Part shown: positions 45,675 through 64,000 of the stretch, piece by piece
Layout of the letters: each line of letters begins with the position of its first letter
Position numbering within the stretch: position 1 is the first letter of the stretch
Notes under the pieces: generated by a model
The model's database searches: none
The model's input: the letters and a program-made list of their open reading frames with translations, nothing else
Told to the model about the DNA's origin: nothing
Assembly (NCBI GenBank): GCA_963677895.2
Contig: CAXXGJ010000006.1
Location: 32,001 to 96,000 of the forward strand
Source of the DNA: Treponemataceae bacterium
GTDB lineage: Bacteria > Spirochaetota > Spirochaetia > Treponematales > Rectinemataceae
Length of the DNA: 64,000 bases
Direction of reading: 5' to 3'
Position numbers and translations under genes: made by a program

Positions 45675-46559
45675 CTAATACTTCAATGTTCCATTAGCCA
45701 CTTTGCGAAGGTGTTCTCCATATAGAGACTTGCCGTATTTTTCTGCTGATTTCATAAGTTCATCTGTTGAAATCCACCCTTTGCGAAATGCAATTTCCTC
45801 AGGTGCAGATATTTTCACTCCTTGACGTTTCTCAATCATCTGAATAAATGATGTTGCTTCAAACAGGCTGTCCATTGTTCCAGTATCCAACCAAGCGAAA
45901 CCGCGCCCCAGAATCTGCCCCTTAAGTCTCCCTTCTTTTAGGTACATTTCATTGAGGGCTGTAATCTCTAGCTCGCCACGAGCAGAATGCTTAACATTTT
46001 TAGCTTTTATCGATACTTTCCTTGGGTAAAAATACAATCCAGTAATACAATAATTACTCTTCGGATTCTTCGGTTTCTCTTCAACTGAAAGAATATTCAA
46101 ATCTTCATCAAACTCCATGATACCGAACCGACCTGGATCATTTACATAATAGCCAAAGATAGTTGCATAGCCTTCTTCAGCATTCTTGACCGAATCATTG
46201 AGAAACTCTGAAAGACCACCTCCATAGAAAATGTTGTCACCAAGAATCATAGAGCAGCACTCATCACCAATAAACTCCTCTCCAAGAATAAATGCCTGAG
46301 CGAGTCCATCTGGGGATGGCTGCTCCTTATAAGAAAGCCTAATACCAAACTGATTTCCATTACCAAGTAGTTTCTTAAAGTTTGGAAGGTCCTGCGGGGT
46401 TGAAATCACAAGGATGTCCTTGATCCCAGATAGCATTAGAGTAGAGAGCGGATAGTAAATCATCGGTTTATCATAAACAGGTAATAGCTGCTTGCTTGTC
46501 ACCATGGTCAATGGATAAAGGCGAGTCCCAGCCCCACCTGCGAGAATAATGCCCTTCAT
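45675..46559 (-). CDS. rfbA: Glucose-1-phosphate thymidylyltransferase
   Basis: [58 protein letters not shown]. Confidence 0.95.
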
Positions 46560-46583
46560 CTCGTTTTACCTCTTTTAAAATCA

Positions 46584-47510: not shown

Positions 47511-47516
47511 ATCATT

Positions 47517-48614
47517 TTACCCATTAAACTTATTTATCATATCGATTATGTAATTGACCTCTTCATCTGTCAGACCAACATATATGGGAAGACTCAACTC
47601 TTCAGCAGCAAATTGCTCTGATTGAGGAATTTCGCCTCTTTTATAGCCCAGTCCTTTATAACATTCAGCTAAATGGCACGGTATAGGATAGTGTATCTGC
47701 GTATGAATACCCTTTTCCGAAAGATAATTGTAGAGATTATCTCTCATTGTGCAACGAATCGCAAATACGTGATATACATGTTCACAACCGAAGCGCAATT
47801 CCGGTAGAAATATCTTGGGGTTTTTGATTCCTTCGAGATACTTCTTTGCGATAATTCTTCTCTCTTCGTTGCCTTCATTAACATGTCTCAAATTAACACC
47901 AAGGATTGCAGCTTGAATCTCGTCCAATCGGCTGTTGATTCCAAGAAGTTCATGCTTGTACTTAATACTACTTCCGTAGTTGCCTAACATACGTACTCTA
48001 TTAGCCACTTCATCTTTATCTGTGATTACTGCTCCTGCATCACCAAATGCGCCAATGGGCTTCGTCGGGTAATAACTAAAACAACCTATATCACCAATGG
48101 TACCAGCCTTTTTCCCTTTATATGTTGCACCATGAGCCTGTGCACAGTCTTCAAGAACATATAGATTATTATTCTGTGCAACCTCAATAATTTTATCCAT
48201 GTCACACATTTGTCCATACAGATGAACCGCCATTATTGCTTTAGTTTTAGGCGTAACAGCTCTTTCAATTAATGCAACATCAATACCAAAATATTTATCA
48301 GCATCTACAAATACAGGAACCGCACCATTTTCCGTAACTGCCAAAGCGGAAGCAATAAAAGTATTTGTCTGAACAATTACTTCATCGCCCTTTCCAATAC
48401 CAAGCGCAGTTAAAGCAAGCCGAAGCGCATCTAGTCCGTTTCCAACACCAACACAATTTTTTACACATTGGTATGCGGAGAAATCTGCTTCAAAATGTTC
48501 AAGCTCTTTACCTAAAATATACCAACCCGAACGAAGCACTCTGAGCGCAGCTTCTTCATATTCGTTCTGATACTTATGGTATTGACGACATAACTCAGCA
48601 AAATTAATGTTCAC
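47517..48614 (-). CDS. dTDP-3-amino-3,6-dideoxyhexose aminotransferase (FdtB/QdtB-like)
   Basis: SGWYILG, GNGLDAL, VHLYGQ, EDCAQAHGA, SYYPTKPIGAFGDAG, GINSRLDEIQAA; start taken at GTG 48614. Confidence 0.88.
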   Translation of the reverse strand: MNINFAELCRQYHKYQNEYEEAALRVLRSGWYILGKELEHFEADFSAYQCVKNCVGVGNGLDALRLALTALGIGKGDEVIVQTNTFIASALAVTENGAVPVFVDADKYFGIDVALIERAVTPKTKAIMAVHLYGQMCDMDKIIEVAQNNNLYVLEDCAQAHGATYKGKKAGTIGDIGCFSYYPTKPIGAFGDAGAVITDKDEVANRVRMLGNYGSSIKYKHELLGINSRLDEIQAAILGVNLRHVNEGNEERRIIAKKYLEGIKNPKIFLPELRFGCEHVYHVFAIRCTMRDNLYNYLSEKGIHTQIHYPIPCHLAECYKGLGYKRGEIPQSEQFAAEELSLPIYVGLTDEEVNYIIDMINKFNG

Positions 48615-48631
48615 GGCTTTATTTCCTTTTA

Positions 48632-49855
48632 TTATTTCTTTTGATAGCATATAATGTTATGCAAATAATTGTCAGCGACCTCTTTTTCAGAAAAATGAAC
48701 AGCAAGATTAATTGCACTCTGCCCCATCGCATTCCTCTCGCCTACTGTCATGTCCTCAATTCTTTGATATATGCTTTCAAGCATTTCGGCGTCACCGGGA
48801 TTACATATAAAACCATTGACCCCATCCTGAATTATTCCATCGAAACCGCTTCCTCTAGAGGCAATTACAATACATCCTTGTAACATAGCTTCGATATATA
48901 CAATACCATAAGTTTCGCCTTCACTAATGAGCGTAAAAATCTGTGCTTCTTTCATCTTTTTAAGCACGCTCACTCTTGGTATTCTCCCAGCAAATGTTAC
49001 TATTTTATCTGCTTTGATTTTTGTCACCAACGCCTTTAATTTTTCTTCTTCCGGTCCACCACCTATAACTTCAAGCGTTGAGCCTAGTGTCCCTCTTTTA
49101 ATAAACGCCTTGATTGTTGATTCTAAGTGTTTTCTAGCTATCAAACTACCAACAAAAATATGCTTTATACCGCTATCAAAGTATTGTTTGCTACATTGTA
49201 TTTCCGCTGCCTCTACAGCGTCGTTAGGCACTCCGGAATAACAAAGGAATGGTTCTTTATCCAAGTTCAAAAGAAGTTTAACACTTTTAGCTTCAATAAC
49301 TGAGCGAACGCCAACAGCTCCTATCTCTTTAATGCAGTTATCAATACGATATTTTTTTATATTTCTTTTAGTGCAATCATGGTGAAAAACGATTGATGAC
49401 TTTGCATTAGGATATTGTTTTGCTATTATCGCGACAAGTTCTGCACTGGGATTAGCGAAATGACCAACAATTAAATCAGGAATGAATTTTTCTGCTTTTA
49501 TCAGCTTTTCTATGTTTTTTACTTGCATCTCCATTTTACGTTTAGAGTAACCCATCCCCGGAAAAAATTTCAGCATTGGAAGTCTATAAACCGTTATTCC
49601 AAATTCTTCACGCTTTAGTCTTTTTCGAGAAGCAAGTGAAGGTATTATGTTTGAAGAGCTACCACCCAATATATTTTTTATCCGTGTAGGTATAAAATAG
49701 AAAACAAGTGGAAATTTGCTTGGGCAATGCATAACAACAACTTTATGCCCTTCGTTTTCCCACACTTTTGCAAAATACTCAACTGTACGAGTTGGTTTAT
49801 TGTCACCAATATCATCAAGCTGCGGGTATAATTGTGTAATGACTAGTATGTTCAT
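48632..49855 (-). CDS. Glycosyltransferase family 4
   Basis: VGSLIARK, ETYGIVYIEAM (EX7E), DGVNGF. Confidence 0.88.
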   Translation of the reverse strand: MNILVITQLYPQLDDIGDNKPTRTVEYFAKVWENEGHKVVVMHCPSKFPLVFYFIPTRIKNILGGSSSNIIPSLASRKRLKREEFGITVYRLPMLKFFPGMGYSKRKMEMQVKNIEKLIKAEKFIPDLIVGHFANPSAELVAIIAKQYPNAKSSIVFHHDCTKRNIKKYRIDNCIKEIGAVGVRSVIEAKSVKLLLNLDKEPFLCYSGVPNDAVEAAEIQCSKQYFDSGIKHIFVGSLIARKHLESTIKAFIKRGTLGSTLEVIGGGPEEEKLKALVTKIKADKIVTFAGRIPRVSVLKKMKEAQIFTLISEGETYGIVYIEAMLQGCIVIASRGSGFDGIIQDGVNGFICNPGDAEMLESIYQRIEDMTVGERNAMGQSAINLAVHFSEKEVADNYLHNIICYQKK

Positions 49856-51144
49856 AGCAGCTTTGTTCCTTTCTCGTTACTTTTGATGAAATCAAATACT
49901 TCACAAAGCCTATCAACCAATCCTGGTTGATCATATGCTTCAGCAACTCTCCGACTGTTATACCCCATCTCTTCTAACTGTTCTTTTTTAAAGCCATAGA
50001 ACTCTTGAATTGTATCCGCAAAAGCCTTAGCAGATTGATTTTCGGTAATAAGCCCACAATTGAACTTAGCAACAAGATTGTACCTCATTTTCATATTACA
50101 GATTATTGGCCTTCCGCTTGCAAGATAATCAAACAGCTTGCTTTGGCTGCCCCCATATTTCATTAAGCTAACTTGCTTATATGTGAATATATTAATTTTA
50201 GCACTAGACAAAATATACGGTATCTTAGCCTTTTCAATTCTCCCATAAAACTTTACATTTTCAATTCCGTTGTCATTAACATATTTTTCAAGCTTTTTCT
50301 GATCAGAACCATTTCCGTATATATGAATAGCTATATCATCGATTCCTCGATTTACTAACTCTTTTCCAGCATCACAAATCTGCCTAACTTGATTTGCATG
50401 ACGAACAGAACCACAATAAACAATATTAAATTTGTTCATATCCCAAGGAAGTAAATCTTTATACTGAACTATATTTTTATCAAATTCCTCCATATCGCAA
50501 CCCATATTTATATTATAGACCTTACGATAATCAATTTTTTTTGAATACTTTTGTTCTCGAAGGTACTGTTCACCTCCCTCTATAGAAAATATTAGGGCAT
50601 CACTTTTTAAATACGCCATTTTTTCAAGCGCATAAAGTATTGTAACAATTGGATTTCTCTTTGAAAAATTTGCATACTCAATAATGCTAGCTGGCCATAA
50701 GTCGACTGTATCAGTAATAATTGGCCTGTGTTGAAAAAAAAGCTTCACGAATGGAAATGTATAGGCTTCACAGGTAATGACAACATCTGCTTTTGGTAAT
50801 ATCTTAGTTTTCTTTGAAAGACCAAGACAAAAGCTCATCATGTTCCAAATTCTTTGCGTTCTATTCCCTCTGTATTTCGGAGTCTTAACATAAAGATAAT
50901 TAATACCATCACAAATACTTTCGCTTGAACCCAATAAATCAATGATATCTATATCTGTATTATGAACGGTACTCGCTGCGACTATTACAACTTTATAACC
51001 TCTCTTTACAAGTTGTTTCCCCCAATTATGGTAGCGTAACATTGTGTTGTAAGGTGGTTGCTGTGCATAATGACAGACAATCAATATAAAATTAATTTTA
51101 TTCTTTTCATTAAAATTACTTTTAATCATATACATTGCTTCCAA
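49852..51144 (-). CDS. Glycosyltransferase family 4 (WbuB-like)
   Basis: DLWPAS, YCGSV, SKLFDYLASGRPII. Confidence 0.87.
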   Translation of the reverse strand: MEAMYMIKSNFNEKNKINFILIVCHYAQQPPYNTMLRYHNWGKQLVKRGYKVVIVAASTVHNTDIDIIDLLGSSESICDGINYLYVKTPKYRGNRTQRIWNMMSFCLGLSKKTKILPKADVVITCEAYTFPFVKLFFQHRPIITDTVDLWPASIIEYANFSKRNPIVTILYALEKMAYLKSDALIFSIEGGEQYLREQKYSKKIDYRKVYNINMGCDMEEFDKNIVQYKDLLPWDMNKFNIVYCGSVRHANQVRQICDAGKELVNRGIDDIAIHIYGNGSDQKKLEKYVNDNGIENVKFYGRIEKAKIPYILSSAKINIFTYKQVSLMKYGGSQSKLFDYLASGRPIICNMKMRYNLVAKFNCGLITENQSAKAFADTIQEFYGFKKEQLEEMGYNSRRVAEAYDQPGLVDRLCEVFDFIKSNEKGTKLL

Positions 51145-51756
51145 TTAATGGGGTTTATACCGATACTCATTCAATTTTCGGCCCTCGTGAGTTGTGAATT
51201 CTCGTTCTAATAAAAAACCATTTTTTTGATAAAAAAAATTTACAGCATCATTATTTATAGCATCCGTCTCAAGGGTTATATAAGCATATTTTTCAAAATC
51301 AACTTTATCTATTAGTGCCTTTATTAACATTGAGCCGATTCCGTGCGATTTTTCTTGTAAATCAACGCCTATTGATGCAAGCTCCACATATGCCTTGTTT
51401 CGCTTCGACTCACTAGGTTTCAGGAAAGCACGTATCAAACGCATGAACACTTTTGGTTTTCTAAAAAAAGCTATGAGACTGTACCAAGTAAATGGAATAA
51501 GTCTCTTCCTTATCATGTATTTGTAAAGACTACTCAGATTGCTAGAATATGCTAGAAAGCCGATCGGTTTGCCGTAATTAAATGCCACTAAAAGTCCAGA
51601 ATTATTTTCTTCACAATAAGATTGGTACATCTGGCGCAAGAAGCCTTGTCCCATCGATGTGAGGAAGAATCCTTGAAATGTAGCTAAATGGATTGAAACA
51701 ATTTGATTAATGATATTTTTTTCAGCTTCTCCTACTATTCTTATTTGTGTACTCAT
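51145..51756 (-). CDS. GNAT-family acetyltransferase
   Basis: LASIGVD, HGIGSML, NDAVNFFYQKNGF; start taken at ATG 51756. Confidence 0.82.
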   Translation of the reverse strand: MSTQIRIVGEAEKNIINQIVSIHLATFQGFFLTSMGQGFLRQMYQSYCEENNSGLLVAFNYGKPIGFLAYSSNLSSLYKYMIRKRLIPFTWYSLIAFFRKPKVFMRLIRAFLKPSESKRNKAYVELASIGVDLQEKSHGIGSMLIKALIDKVDFEKYAYITLETDAINNDAVNFFYQKNGFLLEREFTTHEGRKLNEYRYKPH

Positions 51757-51932
51757 AATTCCTCTCATCTGAGACAACCGTGTACCGTTGCATAAAGGCC
51801 TTAATTTAGCCTAAAATAATATATAAACTAAAGCATTTATCTTTGAATACAATTTTTGCGTTATGCAGTAACTCCTCATTTTTAGTTACATCAAATGTTT
51901 TTGCATGATATCGATGCGAGGCTTTGTGCTAT

Positions 51933-52667
51933 TTATTTATTAAAAAACTTCTGGGCTTCTAAGTAGCTATCTAGGGAACCAATATCGTGCCGTTTGCCGG
52001 CGAATCTGTAAGCATAGATCGGTTTTCTTTTTATAAGCCATCCTACGAACTGGCCAGGAGCGTCAGAGTTGTTGCCTTCTTCTACGTAGGTATGGATCAG
52101 GTGGAGGGTCTCCTTTTTATAAATGTAGAATGGAGGAACTGCATAATCGGATTTAGGTGCTTTCGGTTTTTCCTCGAAGGAAAGGACTTTACCTTGGTCG
52201 TCAATCTCCGCTACACCCGTCTTTTGGAGCGATTCAATTCGCTCTTCCTTGTGGGTAGTGATGCAATCGGCTTGTACTAAATTAAAAAATGCAGCGAAGT
52301 CGGCCAGAGAGAAATCGAAGAGGTTGTCGCCCGCGAGCACCATGAGATCTTCGTCTATCGCATTTTGGTGGATAGCTAGGGACATGTCGCCAATGGCACC
52401 GAGACGGGTTTCGTTATCACAGGTGCCGTCGTTGATTATAGAGATCCTGCTATCCTGTCCAATTTCTTTTATATATTCCGAAAACTGCTCAGAAAAGCGG
52501 GCATTCGATACCAGAATAGTCTCGTTGATCTCCTTAACCTTGTCGATCTTTTCCAACAGACGCTCAAGAATGGTCTTCCCTCCTACAGGAAGGAGGCTTT
52601 TAGGTTTATCCTTGGTGAGGGGATAGAGCCTGGTGGCATAACCAGCGACAAGAATCACGCATTTCAT
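51933..52667 (-). CDS. Sugar-1-phosphate nucleotidyltransferase
   Basis: LVAGYATRLYPL...PKSLLPV, AGDNLF, FEEKP, HDIGS. Confidence 0.87.
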   Translation of the reverse strand: MKCVILVAGYATRLYPLTKDKPKSLLPVGGKTILERLLEKIDKVKEINETILVSNARFSEQFSEYIKEIGQDSRISIINDGTCDNETRLGAIGDMSLAIHQNAIDEDLMVLAGDNLFDFSLADFAAFFNLVQADCITTHKEERIESLQKTGVAEIDDQGKVLSFEEKPKAPKSDYAVPPFYIYKKETLHLIHTYVEEGNNSDAPGQFVGWLIKRKPIYAYRFAGKRHDIGSLDSYLEAQKFFNK

Positions 52668-52671
52668 CGCT

Positions 52672-53871
52672 TCAATCCTTCACACCGCATTTTGTCATAT
52701 AAGAAGCCCCATCCGCTGTCTTGCAGAAATATACTTTGTACTTGTCAGCATATTGAGGATGTTTTACTGGATAGACTTCTGCAATTCGTCCTTCAACTTC
52801 TGCATGGCTGGTAGGATCGACCATCCCAATACAGCAGCCCCTGTACCCCGCCCCGCTGAAACGGGCTCCGTAGACACCAGGGATATTCTTTAAAGTATTG
52901 AAAATCGTAATGAGTTCTGGAGATCCGCATTGATAGTCGTGCACCGAACTCTCGCCGGATTCCACCATCAGCTTTCCAAAAGTCTTGATATCGCCCTGTT
53001 TCCAGGCTTCAGTACCATCGATCACGCGTTGATTCTCGGTGAAATAGTGCTTCGCTCTTCGTCCAAATCGTCCTGGGAGAGAATTTCTATGCGCCATCCA
53101 TTCATCATGTGTCACGCTGTGGAGCACGATATCCTTGTAAGGTGTCGTTGCTCCTCGGGACAACTCCTGCAACAGCGACGCCGCGATTTTGCACTCGTCC
53201 ACCCGGTTGTTGTAGTCGGTACCGATGAGGGCTTTCGTAAAGCCAGAGTTGACGATGACCACCTCGAACTCAGGCATGGAGGGACTCTTGGGAATAAGCT
53301 CCCACTCGCTTGTGGCGCAGTCCATTCTCATCAAATAGCCATCTTTGCTAAGAATATTGGCCGACTGGTCTAAAATGCCATTCTTTAACCCGATGAAGGC
53401 TGTCTCCACCCAGTGGCTGTATTGGATAAGCTTTTCTTTGGGAATTTCGATGCCGTTGACATCGGCCAACGCCATCAAATAGGCTGTAGTGACCGCCGCG
53501 GAGGAACTCAATCCCCCCATGGGAAGACGACCGCGTATCACCGCCTTCAAACCCTTCCTGAGCTTGAAATCCCGTGAAAGCGAGAGCACGGAACCCCTGA
53601 TATAGTTGCCCCAGAACCCCGGAAGCATTTCCGGTACCTGATCGATATGGAAGTATTCCTCGTCCGGGAAATCCATGCTCTGGATTTTCACGAAACCCGC
53701 GTCGTCGGGCGCGTAGAGCAGATCCACGTTCACGTCCAGAGCCATGCCTGTTACCAGTCCGCCCTGGTGATCTATATGCGCCCCAAGGGGACAAATCCTC
53801 AAAGGGGAACGAATCTGGCCGCAATGAGGAATACCGAAGATGTCGACGAACTGGCGTGCGATCGTATCCAT
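52672..53871 (-). CDS. GHMP sugar kinase, galacturonokinase-like
   Basis: SPLRICPLGAHIDHQGG, GGLSSSAA, GLKNGILDQSA, YNNRVDEC, YGARFSGAGYRGCC. Confidence 0.8.
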   Translation of the reverse strand: MDTIARQFVDIFGIPHCGQIRSPLRICPLGAHIDHQGGLVTGMALDVNVDLLYAPDDAGFVKIQSMDFPDEEYFHIDQVPEMLPGFWGNYIRGSVLSLSRDFKLRKGLKAVIRGRLPMGGLSSSAAVTTAYLMALADVNGIEIPKEKLIQYSHWVETAFIGLKNGILDQSANILSKDGYLMRMDCATSEWELIPKSPSMPEFEVVIVNSGFTKALIGTDYNNRVDECKIAASLLQELSRGATTPYKDIVLHSVTHDEWMAHRNSLPGRFGRRAKHYFTENQRVIDGTEAWKQGDIKTFGKLMVESGESSVHDYQCGSPELITIFNTLKNIPGVYGARFSGAGYRGCCIGMVDPTSHAEVEGRIAEVYPVKHPQYADKYKVYFCKTADGASYMTKCGVKD

Positions 53872-53894
53872 ATAATCCTGTTATCCCCTATGTT

Positions 53895-54995
53895 TTAAGT
53901 CAATATCTCCACGGTTCCCAAAGAACTTAGTTTATAAAACCTCAACTTTCGAAGCCGTTCCTCCTCCGTGCAGAAGTGATACATCTCATGCTTCGACAAC
54001 AAGGTATACATTAACTCAAGCATGTGCCGGGCGACAGCCACAATCGCAATGCGCTTTCCTCGACGCTCGGCAATTCGATCGTATACAGCTCTGAAATGTA
54101 CTCCCATTGGAGAGCGGACCGCCGCCCATGCCGCCTGCACTAGAGCCCGCCTCAATGCTGGGCTTCCCTGTTTCGTAATATGCCCCATGTGGTGAATGGA
54201 GGTTCCAGAAAGCTCTACCCGAGGCACCATTCCCACGTAGTAGCTAACCTGGGCAGGATTCTCAAAACGGTCCTCCGTCCCTACAAATCCTAAGTAGGCG
54301 AGCGCCACTGTAGGCCCCACCCCGGGAATTGACAGGAGGATTTCTGCCTCCTTTTCCCGCTTCAGCAGGGCTTGGCGTACCTGTTCCTTGACGAGCACTC
54401 TCTGCGATTCTATCGCCGCGAGAATGACGCAGTATTGCTCGGCCAGCATGCGATAGATTCCCGTCATGCGCCCAAGGATCGCCATTCGCCCTTTCTCCGT
54501 TGCCAGATCCTTCTTGGTGATCTCCGTCATGCCATGCTCGACGCATGCCGCATGAAACCGATTTATGATCCCTGTTCGCTCCCGGTTGAGAAAGATCTGG
54601 TGGTTCGCAAGCCTCCGCGCCTCTTCATCTTCTTGGCTCGGCAGGTTTACCTCAGGCAGACATTCTTCTGCGGTTCCTTGCAGCACCCGGGCAAGCTTGA
54701 GCGCGTCTTCTTTATCCGTCTTCCTCATGGAGCTGTAGATGACCGCCAGTTTTGCTGAATGCAAAACCTTCACCCGCACTCCGTCGACCTGCGCAAGCCT
54801 TCGTGCAAGGGTGAACGACAGCGCCCCTGCCTCAAGCGCCACCACGTCCCCCGCTTCGAGTTTCCCCGCAAGCTCATCTCTTCCCTCTGCGTCCGTCGTC
54901 CCTCTCCAGCGAATGATCTTTTCCCCGGCATGCAGTACACAGGCTTCGTAGTGACGTTTGCCGAGGTCGATTCCTATGAATCGCCGTGCTTCCAT
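53895..54995 (-). CDS. IS110 DEDD recombinase/transposase
   Basis: FIGIDLGK, ALEA, KTDKEDA (DEDD), SIPGVGP, GMVPRVELSG (catalytic Ser motif), ITKQGS. Confidence 0.93.
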   Translation of the reverse strand: MEARRFIGIDLGKRHYEACVLHAGEKIIRWRGTTDAEGRDELAGKLEAGDVVALEAGALSFTLARRLAQVDGVRVKVLHSAKLAVIYSSMRKTDKEDALKLARVLQGTAEECLPEVNLPSQEDEEARRLANHQIFLNRERTGIINRFHAACVEHGMTEITKKDLATEKGRMAILGRMTGIYRMLAEQYCVILAAIESQRVLVKEQVRQALLKREKEAEILLSIPGVGPTVALAYLGFVGTEDRFENPAQVSYYVGMVPRVELSGTSIHHMGHITKQGSPALRRALVQAAWAAVRSPMGVHFRAVYDRIAERRGKRIAIVAVARHMLELMYTLLSKHEMYHFCTEEERLRKLRFYKLSSLGTVEILT

Positions 54996-55269: not shown

Positions 55270-56325
55270 TCAAAATTGCTTAGAATGTGTAGCAAACCAA
55301 TCAGCAAAGCGCTTTAAACCTTCGGCAATGCTTGTGTGGGGTTTCCACTGCACCGTGCTTTCAAGATCGTCGATCTCGGCTTCCGTGGCGTACACATCGC
55401 CCGGCTGCATCGGAAGGTACTTCTTTATGGCCACCTTTCCGATCGCCTTTTCCAGCTCTTCGATGAAGACCGAAAGCCGCTCCGAATGATTGTTGCCGAT
55501 ATTGAAGACCCTGTAGGGCGCCCTCGACCGGGAAGGATCGGGATTCGCAGGATCCCAGGTTTTATCGCCCTGGGGGATTTTATCGGCTATGCGGAGAATA
55601 CCCTCGACGATGTCGTCGACATAGGTAAAATCCCTCCACATATCCCCATTGTTATAGATATCGATCGAGCGGCCCTCGACGATAGCCTTCGCGAATTTGA
55701 AATAAGCCATATCAGGGCGGCCCCAGGGACCATAGACCGTAAAAAACCGCAGACCCGTCGTCGGCAAGCCGTAGAGATGGCTGTAGCTATGAGCCATGAG
55801 CTCGTTCGATTTCTTGGTAGCGGCATAGAGGCTCACCGGATGATCGGTATGATCTTTCGTGCTAAAAGGTCTCGTGTCGTTGAGGCCATAGACCGAGGAA
55901 CTCGAGGCGTAGACAAGATGGGAAACCTTCGCGTGCCTGCAAGCCTCGAGCATATTCAGGAATCCAACGATGTTCGAATCGATGTACTCGCGGGGATGAT
56001 CGATGCTGTACCGAACCCCCGCCTGAGCGGCGAGATTAATGACCCTGTCGAAGGCAAATTCCTTGAAGAGCGACTCGATCGCGGCCTGGTCCTCAAGCTT
56101 CATCCGGATAAAACGCATGTTTGGGTAAGCGGCGCTGTGTACGGCCTTTCCCCAGACTTCCGCTTCCCGATCGATCCCCAACTCCGCGAGACGCGCGAAC
56201 TTGAGCTCCGGGTCATAGTAGCTATTGATGGAGTCGATCCCGACGACGGAATCCCCGCGTTCCAAAAGCCTCTTCGTCGTATGAAAGCCAATAAATCCGG
56301 CCGCGCCGGTCAACAATATTCGCAT
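55270..56325 (-). CDS. UDP-glucuronate 4-epimerase (Uge/CapI-like)
   Basis: GAAGFIG, NLAAQAGVRYS, ASSSSVYG, YAATKK, TVYGPWGRPDMA, MQPGDV. Confidence 0.92.
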   Translation of the reverse strand: MRILLTGAAGFIGFHTTKRLLERGDSVVGIDSINSYYDPELKFARLAELGIDREAEVWGKAVHSAAYPNMRFIRMKLEDQAAIESLFKEFAFDRVINLAAQAGVRYSIDHPREYIDSNIVGFLNMLEACRHAKVSHLVYASSSSVYGLNDTRPFSTKDHTDHPVSLYAATKKSNELMAHSYSHLYGLPTTGLRFFTVYGPWGRPDMAYFKFAKAIVEGRSIDIYNNGDMWRDFTYVDDIVEGILRIADKIPQGDKTWDPANPDPSRSRAPYRVFNIGNNHSERLSVFIEELEKAIGKVAIKKYLPMQPGDVYATEAEIDDLESTVQWKPHTSIAEGLKRFADWFATHSKQF

Positions 56326-56328
56326 TCG

Positions 56329-57672
56329 CTATCTCCCGACACCGATGTAGGCAAACCCCAAAGCTTCGGCCTGAGCGCGGTCGTAAATATTTCTGAAATC
56401 GAAAAGCATAGGTGTCTTCAGAAGGCGCTTTACCTTGGCAAGGTCCAGGTTCCGGAACTGGTTCCACTCTGTAAGGATGACGAGAGCGTCGGCGTCCTTC
56501 ATCGTGTCGTACTCTCCCGCGCAGTAGGTGACATGATCATCGATAGCTTGAAGCCTCCATGAAGCCTCTTTCATCGCCTCCGGATCGTAGGCTTTGATTT
56601 TCGCACCGCCTGATACCAGCGCGGCGAGGATCGCGAGGGCCGGGGCTTCGCGCATGTCGTCCGTGTTGGGCTTGAAAGCAAGACCAAGGACAGCCAGCTT
56701 TTTGCCTTCAAGGCTGCCGAGGGTCGCCTCGATCTTGTCCACCATACGCAGCTTTTGGGCTTCGTTCGCCAGGATCGTCGCTTCCACTACTTTCAGAGGG
56801 CTATCATTCTTTCGCGCTATATCGGCGAGCGCCTTCGTGTCCTTGGGGAAACAGGAGCCACCATAGCCAGGACCCGGATGGAGGAATTTAGCCCCAATGC
56901 GGCCATCCTTCCCCATCGCCGTGGCGACTGCCTTGACGTCGGCCCCCACCTTCTCGCAGAGATTTGCTATCTCGTTGATGAAGGTTATCTTGACCGCCAA
57001 AAAAGCGTTGGAAGCGTACTTGATCATCTCGGCCGACTCGAGGTTGGTCTCAATGAAGGGCGTCTCGTTGAGATACAGCACCCGGTAGATCGCGCGCATC
57101 GCCTCGCGAGCCTTGTCCGACTCTATGCCGAGCACGACCCTATCAGGATGCATGAAGTCGTAGACAGCCGAGCCTTCGCGAAGGAACTCGGGGTTGGAGA
57201 CAACATCGAACTCATGCGAGAGGGCGCTGGTAGGGCTTTTGCTGGCGCGAGCGGCCAGCTCTTCGGCAATCCATTTTTTGACGAGCCTGCCGGTGCCGAT
57301 AGGCACCGTGCTCTTGTCTACCACTACGCGGTAACTGTTTATCGTGCGGCCGATAGTCCGAGCGGCTTCTTCAACATAGCGAAGATCGGCCGAACCATCG
57401 TCCGAGGGGGGCGTTCCCACCGCTATAAATATCACTTCCGCCGCTTGGATGGCCGGGAATGCGTCGTTGGTGAAGAAAAGGCGTTCTGCGGCCACGTTCC
57501 GCGCCACCACATCGGAGAGCCCCGGCTCGAAGATGGGGATTTGTCCCGCTCGAAGGCCTTCGATTTTTTTCTCGTCGACGTCGACGCAGGTTACCGTGTT
57601 GCCGAAATCGGCCAGGCAGGCGCCCGACACGAGACCGACGTAGCCGGTACCGATCACCGCGATTGATGCCAT
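56329..57672 (-). CDS. ugd: UDP-glucose 6-dehydrogenase
   Basis: GTGYVGL, KSTVP, SNPEFLREG, GYGGSCFPKD, FKPNTDDMRE. Confidence 0.93.
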   Translation of the reverse strand: MASIAVIGTGYVGLVSGACLADFGNTVTCVDVDEKKIEGLRAGQIPIFEPGLSDVVARNVAAERLFFTNDAFPAIQAAEVIFIAVGTPPSDDGSADLRYVEEAARTIGRTINSYRVVVDKSTVPIGTGRLVKKWIAEELAARASKSPTSALSHEFDVVSNPEFLREGSAVYDFMHPDRVVLGIESDKAREAMRAIYRVLYLNETPFIETNLESAEMIKYASNAFLAVKITFINEIANLCEKVGADVKAVATAMGKDGRIGAKFLHPGPGYGGSCFPKDTKALADIARKNDSPLKVVEATILANEAQKLRMVDKIEATLGSLEGKKLAVLGLAFKPNTDDMREAPALAILAALVSGGAKIKAYDPEAMKEASWRLQAIDDHVTYCAGEYDTMKDADALVILTEWNQFRNLDLAKVKRLLKTPMLFDFRNIYDRAQAEALGFAYIGVGR

Positions 57673-58454: not shown

Positions 58455-59096
58455 ATGATGAAATTCAGTAAAATCGTGCAAACCTTCGGGGATAGAGCCT
58501 GGTTTGACTTCGAGATGGTCCATCTTCTCTCGGGCGAGGCCTCAGCCTGCGTGCATACAGAGCTGTACCGATGGCGGGAATCGGGCAAACTGATCGAGCT
58601 TAGGCGAGGCTTGTTCGCGCTGGCCGAGCCTTGGAGACATTCGCCCGTCGATGGCGCCTGCCTGGCCGAAGCCTTGTATCCGCCCTCCTCTCTTTCGGGA
58701 GCCTGGGCCTTGCGGCGCTATGGGCTGCTTCCTAGTTGCGTCGTGGGTGGGGCTGAGGGCTGCGCGCGCCCGGAGTTCGACTTGGTGACGGCGCGCCCCG
58801 CTAAGATCTTCGAGAACCCCTTTGGCCGCTATTCCTACACCACCTTTCCCCGCGACCTGCTTTTCGGCACGAAGACCGAGATGATTGGCGGGAACAGGGT
58901 GCGGATGGCCCTTCCCGAGAAGGCGCTTCTGGACTACTGGTTCATCGAGGGCGGGGAATGGGACGAGGAGCGGATCGAGAACGCGGGCTTGAGAAGAGAG
59001 CCGCTGGATATGGAGAGGCTGGAGGCGCTTGCGGCGCGCGCGGGCCGGCCACGGCTCGCGCGCGCCACCGGAGCCTACCTGAGGGCAGCCCTATGA
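58455..59096 (+). CDS. AbiEi-like type IV antitoxin
   Basis: RWRESGKLIELRRGLF, YPPSSLSGAWALRRYGLLP, FENPFGRYSY, ALPEKALLD. Confidence 0.75.
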   Translation: MMKFSKIVQTFGDRAWFDFEMVHLLSGEASACVHTELYRWRESGKLIELRRGLFALAEPWRHSPVDGACLAEALYPPSSLSGAWALRRYGLLPSCVVGGAEGCARPEFDLVTARPAKIFENPFGRYSYTTFPRDLLFGTKTEMIGGNRVRMALPEKALLDYWFIEGGEWDEERIENAGLRREPLDMERLEALAARAGRPRLARATGAYLRAAL

Positions 59097-59575
59097 TGCG
59101 GGAAGAAATCCTCGAGATAGCCGACATGGCCGAAACGCCTGAAGAGAAGCTTTGCGCGACACGAGCATGCATCCAGGCCGCGGCGCTTCGCTCGCTGCAC
59201 GAGCTGGGAGCCTTCGAAAAACTCTGCCTGACCGGAGAAAGCGCCCGCCATTTCGCCTCCGGAACGCCAGAATACATGACCGACCTCGAATTCGGGCTTG
59301 TGGACAAGAAGGGGTACAAACCCGAACAGTGGCTCTTCGCGGTCAAACGCCGGCTGCGTTTCATGGGACTGGACGCACGCATCGCCTTCGCGCGAAAAAC
59401 ATCCGTCCACTCAGGCTGGGTAAAGGTGACCGGCCTCCTCGCCGAGGAAGTCGGCTTCAGGATCGTCATAGATATCGCGCCAGTCGAGCCCGCGACCTGC
59501 AAGGTGAAACTAGTGGACATGGCGGGAGAGTGCTTCGGTATTCGGTATAGTAGCGATTTGGCGAGAGTATTATGA
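59093..59575 (+). CDS. Short, degenerate AbiEii-like protein (possible pseudotoxin)
   Basis: ATGA overlap with the antitoxin; IQAAALRSLHE...LCLTGESARHF...MTDLEFGL is a degenerate version of the GGTA/SEDLDF motifs; only 160 aa. Confidence 0.55.
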   Translation: MMREEILEIADMAETPEEKLCATRACIQAAALRSLHELGAFEKLCLTGESARHFASGTPEYMTDLEFGLVDKKGYKPEQWLFAVKRRLRFMGLDARIAFARKTSVHSGWVKVTGLLAEEVGFRIVIDIAPVEPATCKVKLVDMAGECFGIRYSSDLARVL

Positions 59576-59665: not shown

Positions 59666-60646
59666 TCAACGTCTCACATGAATTTTGTATTGGAAACGCG
59701 TCGTGTTATTCGGATTCCGTATACTATCGATAATGACGACAATGACAATGACTAGTCCCGTGAGCACACGTTTCACCGGTTCAGATGCGCCCAACTGTGA
59801 TAGACCTGTCTCTAAGGCTACCATGATAATTGTTCCCAGGAAGCTTGACCATACATTCCCTTCCCCTCCCCTCAGACTGGTCCCACCCACAGCCACGGCA
59901 GCGATCACGTAAAGCTCAAGGCTTCCCCCAGTATTCGGGTCAACCGCCTCCATGCGCGCGCTTTCAAAGATCGCGGCTATTGCCACCAGCATCCCCGATA
60001 GGGCGAAGGTTGCTACCTTAATTTTCCCTGTAAAAACCCCCGAAAGATACATCGCTTCCTCGTTCGTTCCGATTCCGACTACATATCGGCCAAAAACCGT
60101 CGATCTGAGAATGTACTCGAAGAGGATTATCATCATGAGGGTGATAATGAAAGCAAGCGATACGCTGTTCAATACGATCGTGTTCAAGACTGAAAGTACT
60201 GATCCGAGATAAATGGTCCGGGAGCCGGAAAAAAGGTATGACATTCCCCTATATATCTCCATAGTGCCTAAAGTCACGATAAAAGGAGATGCGCGCCACT
60301 TGACAATGACAAGACCGTTTATCATTCCCAACACTATACCAAGCGCGATGGTAATAACGATGGCGATAGGCGTGGCCATGCCAAAATTGGTTATGGCCAC
60401 GGCAAGTGTGATCGAACAACATGCCATAATTGAGCCGACAGACAGATCGATGCAACCGACTAAGATCACGAAGGTCATTCCTGTCGCGACGATTGCGTTA
60501 CTCGCCACTTGATTGAGGATCGTGCTAAATGTCTGGATCGAACGATAAGGATTCTTTCCGGAACCTAGAAGCGACATAATGAGAAGTATCCCGATGGGAA
60601 AAAGCAGGAATTTAATATAGCTCATGTAAGTCTTTTTAATGTTCAT
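59666..60646 (-). CDS. Monosaccharide ABC permease (RbsC-like)
   Basis: GMTFVILVGCIDLSVGS, PFIVTLGT, GTNEEAMYLSG (EAA loop), IAAVAVGGTSLRGGEG. Confidence 0.9.
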   Translation of the reverse strand: MNIKKTYMSYIKFLLFPIGILLIMSLLGSGKNPYRSIQTFSTILNQVASNAIVATGMTFVILVGCIDLSVGSIMACCSITLAVAITNFGMATPIAIVITIALGIVLGMINGLVIVKWRASPFIVTLGTMEIYRGMSYLFSGSRTIYLGSVLSVLNTIVLNSVSLAFIITLMMIILFEYILRSTVFGRYVVGIGTNEEAMYLSGVFTGKIKVATFALSGMLVAIAAIFESARMEAVDPNTGGSLELYVIAAVAVGGTSLRGGEGNVWSSFLGTIIMVALETGLSQLGASEPVKRVLTGLVIVIVVIIDSIRNPNNTTRFQYKIHVRR

Positions 60647-61637
60647 TATTTTCGTTTTCCTTGAATACTTTAACATCGACGGGTGTTTCTCTGTCTTCCT
60701 GGAGGGTCCCTGTTCTTATAGCCTGCAAAGCACACTCTATCCCCTCGACGACAATCTTATCGGGATATTGTTCAGCAGTAGCAATTATCCGTTTCTCCTT
60801 GAGAATTTCGTTGACGGCCGTTATATTGTCGAATCCCACGATTTCAACGTTTTTTGCTACTTTACCGAGGGCTTTTATAGCGGCGAGCGCCCCAAGCGCC
60901 ATTGTATCATTGGCGCACGCAATTCCCCGTATATTAGGGTATTTTCTGAAAATGGCAGTGGTCGCAGTGTTGGCCTTTGTGATATCCCAGTCGCAGGGCT
61001 TAATCTCGACGATATTCATCCCGTAGTCTAGAAAAGCCTCTACAAAACCTTCCACCCGCTCTTTTGAATTGAAAGCTGTCGGAATACCTTCAAGGATCGC
61101 AACCTCTGAGCCTTTTTCAATTTTTTCAGCGAGCTTTGTGGCTACTTGCATAGCCGCGTAGCGGTTGTTAGGTCCGACAAAAGTGATAGAATGTTTTTTT
61201 TCTTTTAGTATTTCGGAATCCAACTGGTTATCTATATTTATTATAACTATCCCTTTTTCGATGGCTTTCGTGCATATCGGTATCAAGGCTTTCGAATCGG
61301 CTGGCGCTATAACTATAGCGTCAACGTTTTTCGCTATCATATTTTCAACAATATGAATCTGCCCTGAAATATCATTTTCATTCTTTATGCCGTTTACGAT
61401 CAAGCCATAGTCATCATGATGTTCGCGTTGATGTGCGGTAGCGCTCTGCCTCATGGTGATGAAGAAATCATTAGCCAACGATTTCATCACGATTGCAATA
61501 GTTGGTTTGTTTTCATTGTTGTTCTTTTCTGCTATATCACAACACAATAACAGGAAAATGGTGACTGCTATAACGATGACAAAGCGAGACAGCTTGTGCC
61601 CTTGTAGCATTCTTGTAGTATATTTTTTTCCCATCAT
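60636..61637 (-). CDS. Sugar ABC substrate-binding protein (RbsB-like), probable lipoprotein
   Basis: MKSLANDFF, DAIVIAPADS, FVGPNN, CANDTMALGA, VGFDN; N-terminal hydrophobic stretch ending LLCC. Confidence 0.9.
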   Translation of the reverse strand: MMGKKYTTRMLQGHKLSRFVIVIAVTIFLLLCCDIAEKNNNENKPTIAIVMKSLANDFFITMRQSATAHQREHHDDYGLIVNGIKNENDISGQIHIVENMIAKNVDAIVIAPADSKALIPICTKAIEKGIVIINIDNQLDSEILKEKKHSITFVGPNNRYAAMQVATKLAEKIEKGSEVAILEGIPTAFNSKERVEGFVEAFLDYGMNIVEIKPCDWDITKANTATTAIFRKYPNIRGIACANDTMALGALAAIKALGKVAKNVEIVGFDNITAVNEILKEKRIIATAEQYPDKIVVEGIECALQAIRTGTLQEDRETPVDVKVFKENENNEH

Positions 61638-63511
61638 GACATTTTCTCTTCAGAGATATCCGAAGTTTTCTGATTTCCCGATATGTTACCATGCATATGT
61701 CTCAATAGAGGCAACTTTATGACCATGATAGTCCCCTCCTTTCCGGATTCGCATTCAATGATCCCTTGATGCGCTTCGATGATATGCTGGCAAATAGATA
61801 AGCCTAATCCGCTGTTGTTCCTGCTGTTTTTCGTACTAAAAAATGGATCAAATATCTTGTCTATTATCTCCACAGGAATACCTGGCCCATTATCCTTGAT
61901 CGCAATTTCCGCAATGTTCTTATCGAACACCGTCGACAATCGTATTTCTATTATGCCTTTGCTTAAGAATGATTCCATGCTGTTCTTTATTAGGTTAAGG
62001 AACACTTGTTTTAACCTGTTTTCATCACCGTTTATAAGTATTGCCTCTGTTGGACGATTCCATATTATTTCGATATCGTTCTTCATAAGAATGTTCTTCA
62101 TGAAAGACAGAAGGCTTTCAATCGTATCAGCCACATTAACTTCTTTATACGGGGTACTTTTTATTTTTGTAAAAGAAAGGAGATCCTTTATAATCTCCGA
62201 CACTCTGTTCAATTCATTTCGCACCTTGTTTATCTTAATACGGTTATCTTCATCGCTAACATGTCTATCCAGCAATTCCAGATAATTGATGCATATCCCT
62301 ATAGGGTTGTTTATCTCGTGGGCAACACTCGCAGCCAGTTCAGCCACCGAGGCAATCTTCTCCGTCCTAATGAGATAATCATTAAATAGTCTTTCCCTTG
62401 TGATATCCTCCATTATGATGATTGTTCCCCAGAAGGTTAACTCCCCGTCATTGAAAGGGTACGAAGCGATTCGATATACAATGCCTTTGTTGTTTGAGAC
62501 TTCTCTCCAGAATCCTTCCTTCTTTTTTTTGATATTTTCTATGATCTCCACCGCGATAGGCATCGATTCGGTATTGAATACTTCATCGACTGCTATATCA
62601 TGTACTTCTTTTTCTTCCTTTCCGAGCATCTTTAAGGCAGGATTATTTATTATATAGGTATTGCCTATAGCATCTAAAACAATAACTCCTAGAGGTATAT
62701 TCTTGATGACTGTTTCGTTGTACTTCTTAAGATAAAGGAGTTCTCGATTATTCTGGTTGAGTTCATCCCTCGTTAAGACGAATGAATACGTCATTTTGAT
62801 GAGCTTGCCGCGATCTAGATTTTCGATGTCCTCTGTTCCTGAGATGCGGCCTTTATTCATGATGGTCACACGGTCAGATATTGCGAATATTTCATCAAAG
62901 TTGTGAGAAATATAGATTGCCGATTTATTCTTCTGTTTGCATTCCGATAATATGCGATAAACCGTCTCCATCTCGACTGGAGTCAGTTTATTGGAAATTT
63001 CATCGAATATTATGATATCAGGATTAATTGATATAGCTTTCATGAGCTCAACCATGAGTTGTTTGTCCTCTGGTAAAGCCCCTAGAGGCATACGAATATC
63101 TATATCAATTCCGAAGTGCCGAAAAAGCTTTTCTGTTTCCTGCTCCATCCTCGATCGTGCCAACATTCCTAAAAAATTGAAACTCATCCTTCCAGAATTG
63201 ATATATTCAGTGGCGTTTAGCGTCGGTACTATGTTTGTATTTTGATAGACTGTAGCGATTCCCATCTCTAATGCCAATCGCGGGGTCAGATTTTCGTATA
63301 TCTTGCCTTTTATAAATATTTCACCTTTTGTCTTTTTTATCGCTCCGCTAATTATCTTTATCAATGTTGATTTGCCTGCCCGGTGTTCCCCTACCAAGGC
63401 ATGGGCTTCCCCGCGTTTCAATGAAAAATTGATACCTTTGATGACTTCTATACCATTATACTCCGCATGAATATCGCGCATTACGATCAATAATTCTTCG
63501 GGATCACACAT
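61634..63511 (-). CDS. Fusion of RbsA-type ABC ATPase domain, PAS domain and histidine kinase (HisKA/HATPase_c)
   Basis: Walker A GEHRAGKST, Q-loop VYQ, Walker B IIIFDE, H-loop ISHN; PAS (IKNIPLGVIVLD...MEDIT); H-box AHEINNP, N-box QVFLNLIKNS, DNGPGIP, FDPFFSTK, GLGLSIC. Confidence 0.9.
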   Translation of the reverse strand: MCDPEELLIVMRDIHAEYNGIEVIKGINFSLKRGEAHALVGEHRAGKSTLIKIISGAIKKTKGEIFIKGKIYENLTPRLALEMGIATVYQNTNIVPTLNATEYINSGRMSFNFLGMLARSRMEQETEKLFRHFGIDIDIRMPLGALPEDKQLMVELMKAISINPDIIIFDEISNKLTPVEMETVYRILSECKQKNKSAIYISHNFDEIFAISDRVTIMNKGRISGTEDIENLDRGKLIKMTYSFVLTRDELNQNNRELLYLKKYNETVIKNIPLGVIVLDAIGNTYIINNPALKMLGKEEKEVHDIAVDEVFNTESMPIAVEIIENIKKKKEGFWREVSNNKGIVYRIASYPFNDGELTFWGTIIIMEDITRERLFNDYLIRTEKIASVAELAASVAHEINNPIGICINYLELLDRHVSDEDNRIKINKVRNELNRVSEIIKDLLSFTKIKSTPYKEVNVADTIESLLSFMKNILMKNDIEIIWNRPTEAILINGDENRLKQVFLNLIKNSMESFLSKGIIEIRLSTVFDKNIAEIAIKDNGPGIPVEIIDKIFDPFFSTKNSRNNSGLGLSICQHIIEAHQGIIECESGKEGTIMVIKLPLLRHMHGNISGNQKTSDISEEKMS

Positions 63512-63517
63512 TGAAAC

Positions 63518-64000
63518 TCACATGCTTAATCGTTTCATTCGGTTGTAAAGCGTTTTTCTAGTCACGTTCAATATTTCTGCTGCTTTAATCTTTACACCTC
63601 CGCTTTTTGATAATGCATCGAGTATCATCTCTCTATTGATTTCATCAATTGCGTCGCTATATTCATCGTGATCGATATCGTTGATCTGAAGATACTGCGA
63701 TGGAAGATCCAATAAACCTATAACAGGACCATCAGAAAAAATGACTGCACGTTCTACGCAATTCTTCAATTCGCGTATGTTTCCCGGCCAGTTATGGTGC
63801 GCAAACAAATTATAGACTTCATCGCTTGCGCCGATAATATTTCTATGATGAAGTGATGAAAATTCCTCGATAAAATGATCCGTGAGAAGACGTACATCGC
63901 CAGGGCGATCTTTAAGTGGTGGTAGATCAAAGTTTATCACCGATAGTCGATAATACAAATCTTCCCTAAAGAGACTTTCTTTGATCATCTGGACTAAGTT
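63518..64000 (-). CDS. Sigma-54-dependent (NtrC/Fis-type) activator, C-terminal part (5' end outside window)
   Basis: FREDLYYRL, LPPLKDRPGD, WPGNIRELKN, Fis-type HTH AAEILNVTRKTLYNRM. Confidence 0.9.
   Translation of the reverse strand, partial: NLVQMIKESLFREDLYYRLSVINFDLPPLKDRPGDVRLLTDHFIEEFSSLHHRNIIGASDEVYNLFAHHNWPGNIRELKNCVERAVIFSDGPVIGLLDLPSQYLQINDIDHDEYSDAIDEINREMILDALSKSGGVKIKAAEILNVTRKTLYNRMKRLSM

Follow-up and report, generated by a model that had tools for sequence, protein, structure and literature searches.

A sigma-54-linked histidine kinase carrying an ABC nucleotide-binding domain is encoded beside sugar importers in Spirochaetota and Moduliflexota

Can the nucleotide-binding domain (NBD) of an ATP-binding cassette (ABC) importer serve as the input of a two-component sensor kinase? 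The question is raised by a gene near the end of a 64,000-nucleotide stretch from a Treponemataceae bacterium of the family Rectinemataceae (positions 32001-96000 of contig C6 in the source assembly, G000; the whole stretch is hereafter the window). The gene encodes a 625-aa fusion of an RbsA-like NBD, a short linker, a PAS domain and a histidine kinase core. A preliminary description of the window regarded the locus as a sugar importer that had lost its own ATPase and been rewired for signalling, with the substrate-binding protein (SBP2) and permease (PERM2) encoded next to the fusion acting as its receptor. Our results supported that interpretation in part. They suggested that a soluble kinase, with an input domain of the type found as the first NBD (NBD1) of CUT2 importer ATPases, likely induces an adjacent ribose-type importer together with a sigma-54 activator bearing a receiver (REC) domain, and that sensing is predicted to proceed through the NBD docked under an RbsC-like permease dimer. 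We assign this reading a probability of roughly one half; that the NBD signals to the kinase at all is what we infer from the sequence. The source assembly comprises 3.5 Mb in 39 contigs with an estimated contamination of 5.46%, and the surroundings of the kinase were followed past the window end in a locus, L009, whose coordinates become window coordinates by adding 58999.

The domain composition of the fusion was clear. Residues 8-241 covered only positions 4-237 of the 501-position RbsA model, that is, NBD1, and likewise aligned with the first NBD of the AraG and YtfR models (NCBIfam). The protein thus departs from the two tandem NBDs in about 500 aa that define a CUT2 ATPase, its remainder being a PAS-kinase, and the replacement of the second NBD by a kinase, as described earlier, was borne out. 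The AtoS model (NF008468) was matched by residues 251-604 only, with 240.4 bits against a cut-off of 646, whereas the HisKA and HATPase_c matches were above their cut-offs (Table 1). The phospho-acceptor His in the dimerisation and histidine phosphotransfer (DHp) domain and the N, G1, F and G2 boxes identified the C-terminal part as a HisKA-type kinase. Pfam and hydropathy agreed with the earlier reading of one NBD-linker-PAS-kinase frame without a transmembrane (TM) helix: no 19-residue window of the fusion reached a Kyte-Doolittle value of 1.6 (maximum 1.18).

The ATP-binding and kinase residues, as well as the linker, were highly conserved in a 30-member family alignment. Invariant residues in the NBD were G41, G46, K47 and S48 of the Walker A motif (GEHRAGKST, aa 41-49, fitting GxxxxGK[ST]), Q90 of the Q-loop (in VYQ), D170-E171 of Walker B (in IIIFDEISNKL) and H203 of the H-loop (in ISHN), in line with the preliminary claim that the Walker motifs and H-loop are kept. 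Invariant in the kinase were H398, N506, N510, D540, G542, G544, F554, G568 and G570, and in the linker Y242, S243, R248, L251, K262, Y264, N265 and E266. The consensus of ABC proteins is LSGGQ for the signature and SALD for the D-loop; the fusion reads LPEDKQ and DEISNKL at these positions. An AlphaFold model built on the same alignment (mean pLDDT 78) was confident for the NBD (aa 1-241, pLDDT mostly 80-92), fell below 50 at aa 243-251, and predicted a helix at aa 256-270, a PAS strand/helix fold at aa 275-369 and two long DHp helices (aa 371-417 and 421-448), followed by the catalytic domain.

The fusion is paired with a response regulator. Its gene lies 6 nt behind that of a sigma-54 activator, of which the window holds only the C-terminal part. 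The preliminary description had looked to the adjacent sequence for a REC domain on this activator, and the full 446-aa protein (L009 4519-5859) has one: Response_reg at aa 15-124 (5.3e-29), followed by Sigma54_activat at aa 144-309 (1.3e-69) and HTH_8 (Pfam). Its translation contains LILMDIRMPG (D63) and GAFTDA, a 5/6 match to GAFTGA, the loop consensus of sigma-54 activators. The genome also encodes RpoN, with two Sigma54_DBD matches over the cut-off (C2:196638-197123 and C18:581595-582068). A partner with REC, sigma-54 AAA+ and HTH domains, rpoN, and a -24/-12 element at the target (see below) make up an NtrC-type system, and at the sequence level the view that the fusion and the activator form a two-component pair is supported. 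The presence of two full sigma-54 genes in one 3.5-Mb assembly may reflect real paralogues or part of the estimated contamination.

The likely target of this pair is encoded just past the window end. Upstream of the activator, on the same strand, follow the genes for a PfkB kinase (ribokinase), a permease (PERM1), a 510-aa ATPase with two ABC_tran stretches, a substrate-binding protein (SBP1) and an IU-nucleoside hydrolase that begins with a hydrophobic leader. The SBP1/ATPase/PERM1 set (L009 6936-10514) has the combination of Peripla_BP_4, BPD_transp_2 and ABC ATPase that defines a CUT2 importer, so that the cluster includes an entire importer together with an ATPase to drive it. As a whole, it is a unit for taking up and phosphorylating nucleoside/ribose-type substrates, and the kinase module lies at its 3' end. 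A -24/-12 element with one mismatch, TGGCATGGCTTTTGCT, is located 56 nt upstream of the nucleoside hydrolase start and heads the importer cluster, and a palindrome, TTACTCACGTGGGTAA (L009 11997-12012, corresponding to window 70996-71011 if extended), lies about 160-185 nt further upstream and may be an enhancer site used by the activator. When two mismatches were allowed, sigma-54 motifs in this locus were not above chance (5 found, 6.08 expected); therefore, only the one-mismatch site is counted, on the grounds of its right position and the family-wide promoter test described below. The 177 nt that precede the ribokinase gene contained three sigma-70-like sites, one of them at L009 6869-6841. 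The sigma-70 scan as a whole was not above chance (32 found, 24 +/- 4.9 expected), and an internal constitutive promoter for the ribokinase-activator-kinase-SBP2-PERM2 genes is thus only a suggestion from the sequence.

The fusion is not a peculiarity of this assembly. The combination of ABC_tran, HisKA and HATPase_c was found in 119 of the 120 best database relatives listed (44-56% identity, ca. 600 aa), which the source databases name 'AtoS' or 'ATP-binding protein', and relatives were encoded at 79 genomic loci from many assemblies in a scan of species-representative genomes. Carriers belonged mostly to Spirochaetota and also to Moduliflexota (UASB14, UASB270, Vecturithrix and Moduliflexus), with single carrier assemblies outside these phyla (Gynuella, Desulfobacteraceae and Elulimicrobium); several genomes had two or three copies. 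Counts from the genome samples are lower bounds, as the samples covered 8 of the 61 genomes of the window's family with 20 candidates scored per genome and 8 of the 301 genomes of its phylum with four candidates scored per genome, G000 being included in both. In a metagenome scan whose patterns were dominated by a generic kinase motif, a true fusion was present at 1 of 80 loci (L099). Among the listed database relatives, the nearest metagenomic ones (P0002-P0016) were 49-56% identical, and one protein (P0101) comes from the cultured Oceanispirochaeta sp. M2. The linker and NBD-PAS junction were among the best-conserved stretches of the family alignments. An assembly chimera or a two-gene read-through limited to this assembly might be suspected from the number of contigs and the estimated contamination, and from a diverged copy in the same genome that is split by a frameshift. 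The uninterrupted architecture in the listed relatives and at the 79 loci, together with the highly conserved junction, rules out such an artefactual origin, to which we attach a practically negligible probability.

That diverged copy is an observation in its own right. It is located on contig C12 of the same assembly (L010 5295-7276, minus strand), is 33-35% identical to the fusion, and lies behind a sigma-54 activator of its own and the genes of a CUT2 importer (SBP, a 438-aa protein of unknown function, two-NBD ATPase and permease). It is frameshifted inside the PAS domain into frames of 399 and 283 aa and has Ser at the position of the H-loop His. Its counterpart in two genomes of the same genus is a single open frame of 623-661 aa, and the split copy is either a pseudogene or an assembly error.

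The neighbourhood of the relatives followed a simple rule. ORFs were called in all loci and classified using the window genome's own proteins as seeds. The activator gene was directly upstream of the kinase gene in 75 of the 79 loci; three of the four misses lay at contig edges and one (L066) was real. A complete CUT2 set (SBP, permease and ATPase) was present in 63 of the 79 loci; when only the 47 loci flanked by 6 kb or more on each side were counted, 45 had one. A transporter gene lay within 600 bp of the activator-kinase pair in 67 of the 79. Sigma-54 promoters (GG/GC fixed, at most one mismatch, within -70 to +250 of a transporter gene) were found by a transporter gene in 45 of the 79 loci, against a mean of 0.83 and a maximum of 3 in 30 block shuffles. 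Gene orders were common to clades of the kinase tree, indicating that kinase and importer travel together. Given this family-wide pairing, gene order and promoters, regulation of the adjacent importer by the two-component pair is well supported, if still inferred. At two loci (L015 and L038), two activator-kinase pairs were arranged head to head or tail to tail, and a separate CUT2 importer accompanied each pair; one kinase at the former (L015_16134) had a very long branch (5.58).

These results changed the picture of the locus. The linkage of homologs to an activator and to CUT2 importers, and the shared architecture, agreed with what the preliminary description had expected if the fusion was genuine. 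The statement that no separate ATPase gene follows was true downstream of the permease but failed upstream, where the two-NBD ATPase lies on the same strand. Consequently, an importer rewired after losing its ATPase is contradicted by the complete importer in this cluster and at nearly all fully flanked related loci. The tight packing described earlier was seen: the fusion stop and the SBP2 start overlap as ATGA, which suggests that the two are co-translated, and SBP2 and PERM2 overlap by 41 nt (11 nt if a later ATG is used).

What, then, might the NBD do in a kinase? The fusion NBD was 30-36% identical to NBD1 of the neighbouring ATPases. Conservation was compared between 77 fusion NBDs and the NBD1 of 73 neighbouring true ATPases. 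Through the Q-loop and into the helical subdomain (VYQN.NVIPSLNAVENIFAGR), conservation in the fusions was no lower than in the NBD1 of the true ATPases. In ABC importers, the helical-subdomain stretch after the Q-loop forms the groove for the coupling helix of the permease. The family also has motifs of its own, namely, the Walker A sequence GEHRAGKST and the post-Walker-B sequence DEISxKLTPxEME, so that the D-loop region is conserved in its own form, ISxKLTP. The signature was weakly conserved in the fusion family, with conservation values, on a scale to 10, of 9 for L, 4 for S and 2-5 for the positions after them. In the true ATPases, the NBD1 signature (consensus LSVGQQQ) was only moderately conserved, and the canonical LSGGNQQK was found in NBD2. 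The degenerate signature and D-loop noted earlier read as reported, but the degeneracy of the signature is partly inherited, since the neighbouring true ATPases likewise show weak conservation of this motif in their NBD1. Among the 150 best matches of 1.84 billion representatives to an NBD-plus-linker query, 24 ran through the linker as a single stretch, of which 20 were 588-621 aa long and four were 215-429 aa, possibly fragments. The other matches were two-NBD ATPases of about 500 aa, and no other output architecture on the NBD and linker was seen among these 150.

The positions of the features discussed are summarised in Table 1. SBP2 has an N-terminal hydrophobic segment followed by LLLCC and matched the AlsB and RbsB models below their cut-offs (NCBIfam); its closest solved relative was 4yle_A (3e-82), followed by allose- and ribose-binding proteins. 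The nearest solved protein of SBP1 was also 4yle_A, again followed by allose- and ribose-binding proteins. PERM2 has several hydrophobic segments, matched AraH (175 bits) and RbsC (171 bits), both below cut-off (NCBIfam), and retains the conserved cytoplasmic loop of its family, GxNEEAxxLSGV. Both SBPs being nearest to ribose/allose-type solved proteins, along with the IU-nucleoside hydrolase and the PfkB kinase, hint that the ligand is likely ribose or a close pyranose/furanose sugar, as judged from sequence relatives.

Table 1. Features of the kinase cluster, in window coordinates unless L009 is given, and amino acid identity to the counterparts at the Sediminispirochaeta locus L011
Feature	Position	Strand	Evidence or remark	Identity to L011
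Sigma-54 activator, C-terminal 160 aa	63518-64000	-	Open at window end; AAA_lid_14 and HTH_8 (Pfam)	
Fusion kinase, 625 aa	61634-63511	-	One open frame; ORF translation	
ABC NBD, CUT2 NBD1 type (single)	Fusion aa 1-241 = 62789..63511	-	Pfam (ABC_tran, aa 25-172, E 1.1e-18), NCBIfam, alignment	
Family-specific linker, TYSFVLSREEL ... LKKYNExIIKNLP	Fusion aa 242-273 = 62693..62788	-	Alignment	
Cytoplasmic PAS domain	Fusion aa 274-371 = 62399..62692	-	PAS_9 over the same residues, E 6.3e-7 (Pfam)	
DHp (HisKA, H398) and catalytic HATPase_c	Fusion aa 372-602 = 61706..62398	-	Pfam: HisKA, aa 390-452, E 1.6e-12, 47.7 bits; HATPase_c, aa 495-602, E 2.8e-24, 86.1 bits	
SBP2, RbsB/AlsB-like periplasmic binding protein, 333 aa	60636-61637	-	Peripla_BP_4, 1.4e-51	51%
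PERM2, RbsC/AraH-like CUT2 permease, 336 aa	59666-60676	-	BPD_transp_2, 1.1e-42; last cluster gene	46%
SBP1				74%
Two-NBD ATPase, 510 aa	L009 7913-9445			62%
PERM1				64%

Based on these observations, a route from sugar to transcription can be proposed. Dimerisation of the kinase would place two NBDs beneath a permease dimer, which in this cluster would probably be PERM2 with SBP2, the pair translationally coupled to the kinase, and in most relatives would be the only permease of the importer. Docking of the sugar-loaded binding protein would favour ATP-dependent closure of the NBDs, and the change might pass through the conserved linker and the PAS domain to the DHp helices. The kinase would then phosphorylate the activator, probably at D63, which would open the sigma-54 promoter upstream of the genes for the exported nucleoside hydrolase, SBP1, ATPase, PERM1 and ribokinase. 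With its weak signature, the NBD would hydrolyse ATP slowly or not at all and work as a switch, not as a motor. A more specific version holds that SBP2, a PERM2 dimer and a fusion dimer form a dedicated ABC receptor, an importer converted into a device for signalling across the membrane, in which docking of the binding protein closes two transport-dead NBDs and the attached kinase reads this closure directly; we consider this version possible but doubtful. If it is true, this would be the first ABC NBD acting as the input domain of a two-component kinase, and the lineage of the window would have gone beyond its relatives by providing the sensor with a binding protein and a permease of its own.

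The distribution of the spare pair bears directly on that version. SBP2 and PERM2 are accompanied by no ATPase of their own, and an extra SBP-permease pair of this kind was otherwise found only at L011, 1 of the 79 related loci, in a Sediminispirochaeta assembly whose kinase is 54% identical and sister to that of the window (SH-aLRT 98). The importer proteins of the two loci, SBP2 and PERM2 included, are clear orthologues (Table 1). The order at L011 is activator, kinase, sigma-54 promoter, SBP1, ATPase, PERM1, SBP2, PERM2 and PfkB. Relative to this arrangement, the pair in the window is relocated to directly behind the kinase gene, which it overlaps. SBP2 and PERM2 may be a private receptor of the kinase, and may equally be a second SBP and permease of the same importer. 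The receptor role that the preliminary description had given to the pair is therefore not supported as stated.

Several points weigh against docking of the NBD on a permease, whether private or shared. At L011 the pair is part of the importer operon and follows the sigma-54 promoter, a placement that suits an additional importer permease and SBP as well as a receptor, and 77 of the 79 related loci lack a spare permease, so that in most loci a real ATPase and the kinase would have to use one and the same importer permease. A homodimer of NBD1-type domains would have two weak-signature sites, which makes canonical closure uncertain on sequence grounds. The NBD-PAS junction was modelled at low confidence, and the cytoplasmic PAS domain could itself be the true sensor. 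Regulation of the importer has its own gaps: a strict sigma-54 promoter match was found in only 29 of the 47 fully flanked loci, and two of these loci lack the CUT2 set, L012, which is flanked by hydrogenase genes and by EF-Tu, NusG, L1 and rpoB genes, and L013, which adjoins a Liv-type importer. A sequence search up to E 0.001 returned no solved CUT2 permease structure.

Some of these points also fit cytoplasmic sensing. In that case the NBD would make no contact with a permease and would serve to bind free nucleotide (ATP/ADP) or to dimerise the kinase, the ligand of the PAS domain would be an internal sugar or sugar-phosphate brought in by basal-level importer activity, and SBP2 and PERM2 would be spare importer parts, PERM2 forming either a heterodimer with PERM1 or a homodimer that shares the two-NBD ATPase. 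A fully soluble fusion with a cytoplasmic PAS domain, the lack of a spare permease at most loci and the embedded pair at L011 agree with such an arrangement. Two SBPs or two permeases per ATPase also occur elsewhere (e.g., L027, L031, L065 and L082), and L012 is an orphan activator-kinase pair with no transporter nearby. However, the Q-loop and helical-subdomain surface of the NBD is conserved at least as strongly as in true ATPases, which would be unexpected had permease contact been lost. Furthermore, the NBD-linker unit occurs almost solely with a kinase output and beside CUT2 importers, and in the window it is the kinase, and not the ATPase, to which SBP2 is coupled in translation. We regard cytoplasmic sensing as unlikely, while taking it seriously.

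The invariance of the Walker A Lys, the Walker B Asp-Glu, the Q-loop Gln and the H-loop His raises another possibility, namely, that by analogy with CbrA the fusion is a slow but working ATPase that energises uptake by SBP2 and PERM2 and reports the flux to the kinase in the same chain. SBP2 and PERM2 are coupled to no ATPase gene besides the fusion, and the parts of PMC7096432 that concern CbrA, an SLC5-kinase fusion that both transports and signals, provide a precedent. The signature is, however, degenerate in both halves of the presumed homodimer (LPEDKQ here, weakly conserved in the family), and in nearly all relatives the kinase is accompanied by a full importer that includes an ATPase, with no permease to spare; such bifunctionality appears improbable. 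Still further down the scale, and very improbable in our estimate, the NBD might be a decoy subunit that binds the importer ATPase or the assembled importer and modulates transport, kinase signalling being secondary or independent. Its homology to NBD1 of the neighbouring ATPases and its constant co-location with them would fit, but nothing specific favours pairing of the fusion NBD with the ATPase, and the conservation of the kinase residues and partner activator throughout the family, with sigma-54 promoters before the importers, points to transcriptional control as the output. Docking of the NBD under a permease dimer, combined with induction of the importer, remains our preferred reading.

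The genomic setting of the cluster suggested a mobile past. As the preliminary description had noted, the module is more AT-rich than its surroundings: the genes of the 11-kb cluster have 39-50% GC, against 56% in the genome and 62-65% in the right flank. In two genomes of the same genus searched (20 candidates scored each), only a 33-34% identical fusion relative was found. The low GC content and the distant same-genus relative fit horizontal acquisition of the entire cluster. Elsewhere in the window, a low-GC (33-40%) sugar-nucleotide/polysaccharide cluster on the minus strand (45675-54995) encodes an FdtA-GNAT protein, a DegT aminotransferase, two group-1 glycosyltransferases, a GNAT protein, a nucleotidyl transferase and a GHMP kinase, and extends to an IS110-family transposase (53895-54995), after which a UDP-glucose dehydrogenase and an epimerase follow (55270-57672). 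The polysaccharide cluster and the transposase indicate that the kinase cluster lies in a patchwork, probably horizontally acquired region. Two overlapping high-GC ORFs of 213 and 205 aa (58455-59575, plus strand) adjoin the end of the cluster and may mark an island border; the first had a weak, sub-threshold match to an AbiEi antitoxin (E 0.0029).

Members of the family are common among free-living Spirochaetota and in Moduliflexota, whose genomes often encode several of them. The family probably governs a good share of the regulation of sugar uptake in these phyla, for which it provides a simple rule to predict which sugar importers belong to sigma-54 regulons. Should the NBD dock on a permease, NBD-kinase coupling would be fixed in one soluble protein and thereby open to mutagenesis, structure determination and reconstitution. 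A full-text literature search, which reached few subscription journals, found no published account of an ABC-NBD/histidine kinase fusion, consistent with the preliminary remark that no characterised example was known. The route from transporter state to kinase is still debated, and to our knowledge transporter-coupled sensing (Bce, Pst/PhoR and DctA/DcuS) has been known only as contact between separate proteins.

A close functional parallel is the flux-sensing Bce module of Firmicutes. As outlined in sections of PMC6978683, BceS lacks a ligand-binding domain of its own and is signalled by the ABC transporter BceAB, whose genes the response regulator induces. The family described here likewise consists of kinases predicted to take their signal from an ABC transporter whose genes are induced by the regulator. 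BceS is a separate membrane protein on an exporter-type transporter, whereas the fusion is soluble and carries an importer-type NBD covalently; moreover, the output here is a sigma-54 activator, the partner is a binding-protein-dependent CUT2 importer, and contact with the transporter is only predicted. In Bce modules the kinase is intramembrane-sensing and has two TM helices, and the permease, BceB, has a large extracellular domain. The kinase here has no TM segment, and its neighbouring permease belongs to the BPD_transp_2 type found in importers. In the PstSCAB-PhoU-PhoR system, as presented in the same portions of PMC6978683, an importer reports its substrate to a kinase that has no periplasmic sensor, and the contact is made between the NBD subunit PstB and the PAS-containing kinase. 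There, three separate proteins and the adaptor PhoU are involved, and the importer represses signalling while its substrate is available. In the fusion, a single chain contains both NBD and kinase; the cluster showed no PhoU-like gene, and induction by the substrate is likely the logic of the system.

Covalent fusion of a transporter module to a sensor kinase is shared with CbrA and CrbS, in which, as stated in parts of PMC7096432 and PMC5715377, an SLC5 solute-symporter domain is fused to a histidine kinase; CbrB, according to a portion of PMC6296734, is a sigma-54 activator. The fused part in CbrA/CrbS is the whole membrane symporter, marked by an N-terminal SLC5 domain and STAC, whereas the Pfam domains of the fusion are ABC_tran, PAS, HisKA and HATPase_c only. 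Since the fusion contains no more of an ABC system than its soluble ATPase half, a separate permease would be needed. Compared with RbsA, AraG and YtfR, the fusion aligns with the first NBD from end to end and keeps the Walker A/B, Q-loop and H-loop motifs, but the second NBD with LSGGNQQK gives way to the linker, PAS domain and kinase. Compared with AtoS and NtrB, it shares the PAS-HisKA-HATPase_c core and has an AtoC/ZraR-like REC-AAA+-HTH_8 partner, but lacks a membrane or HAMP part, its N-terminal 250 aa being an ABC NBD. By analogy with these systems, the fusion and its activator would represent transporter-coupled two-component sensing in which an ABC NBD is the covalent input.

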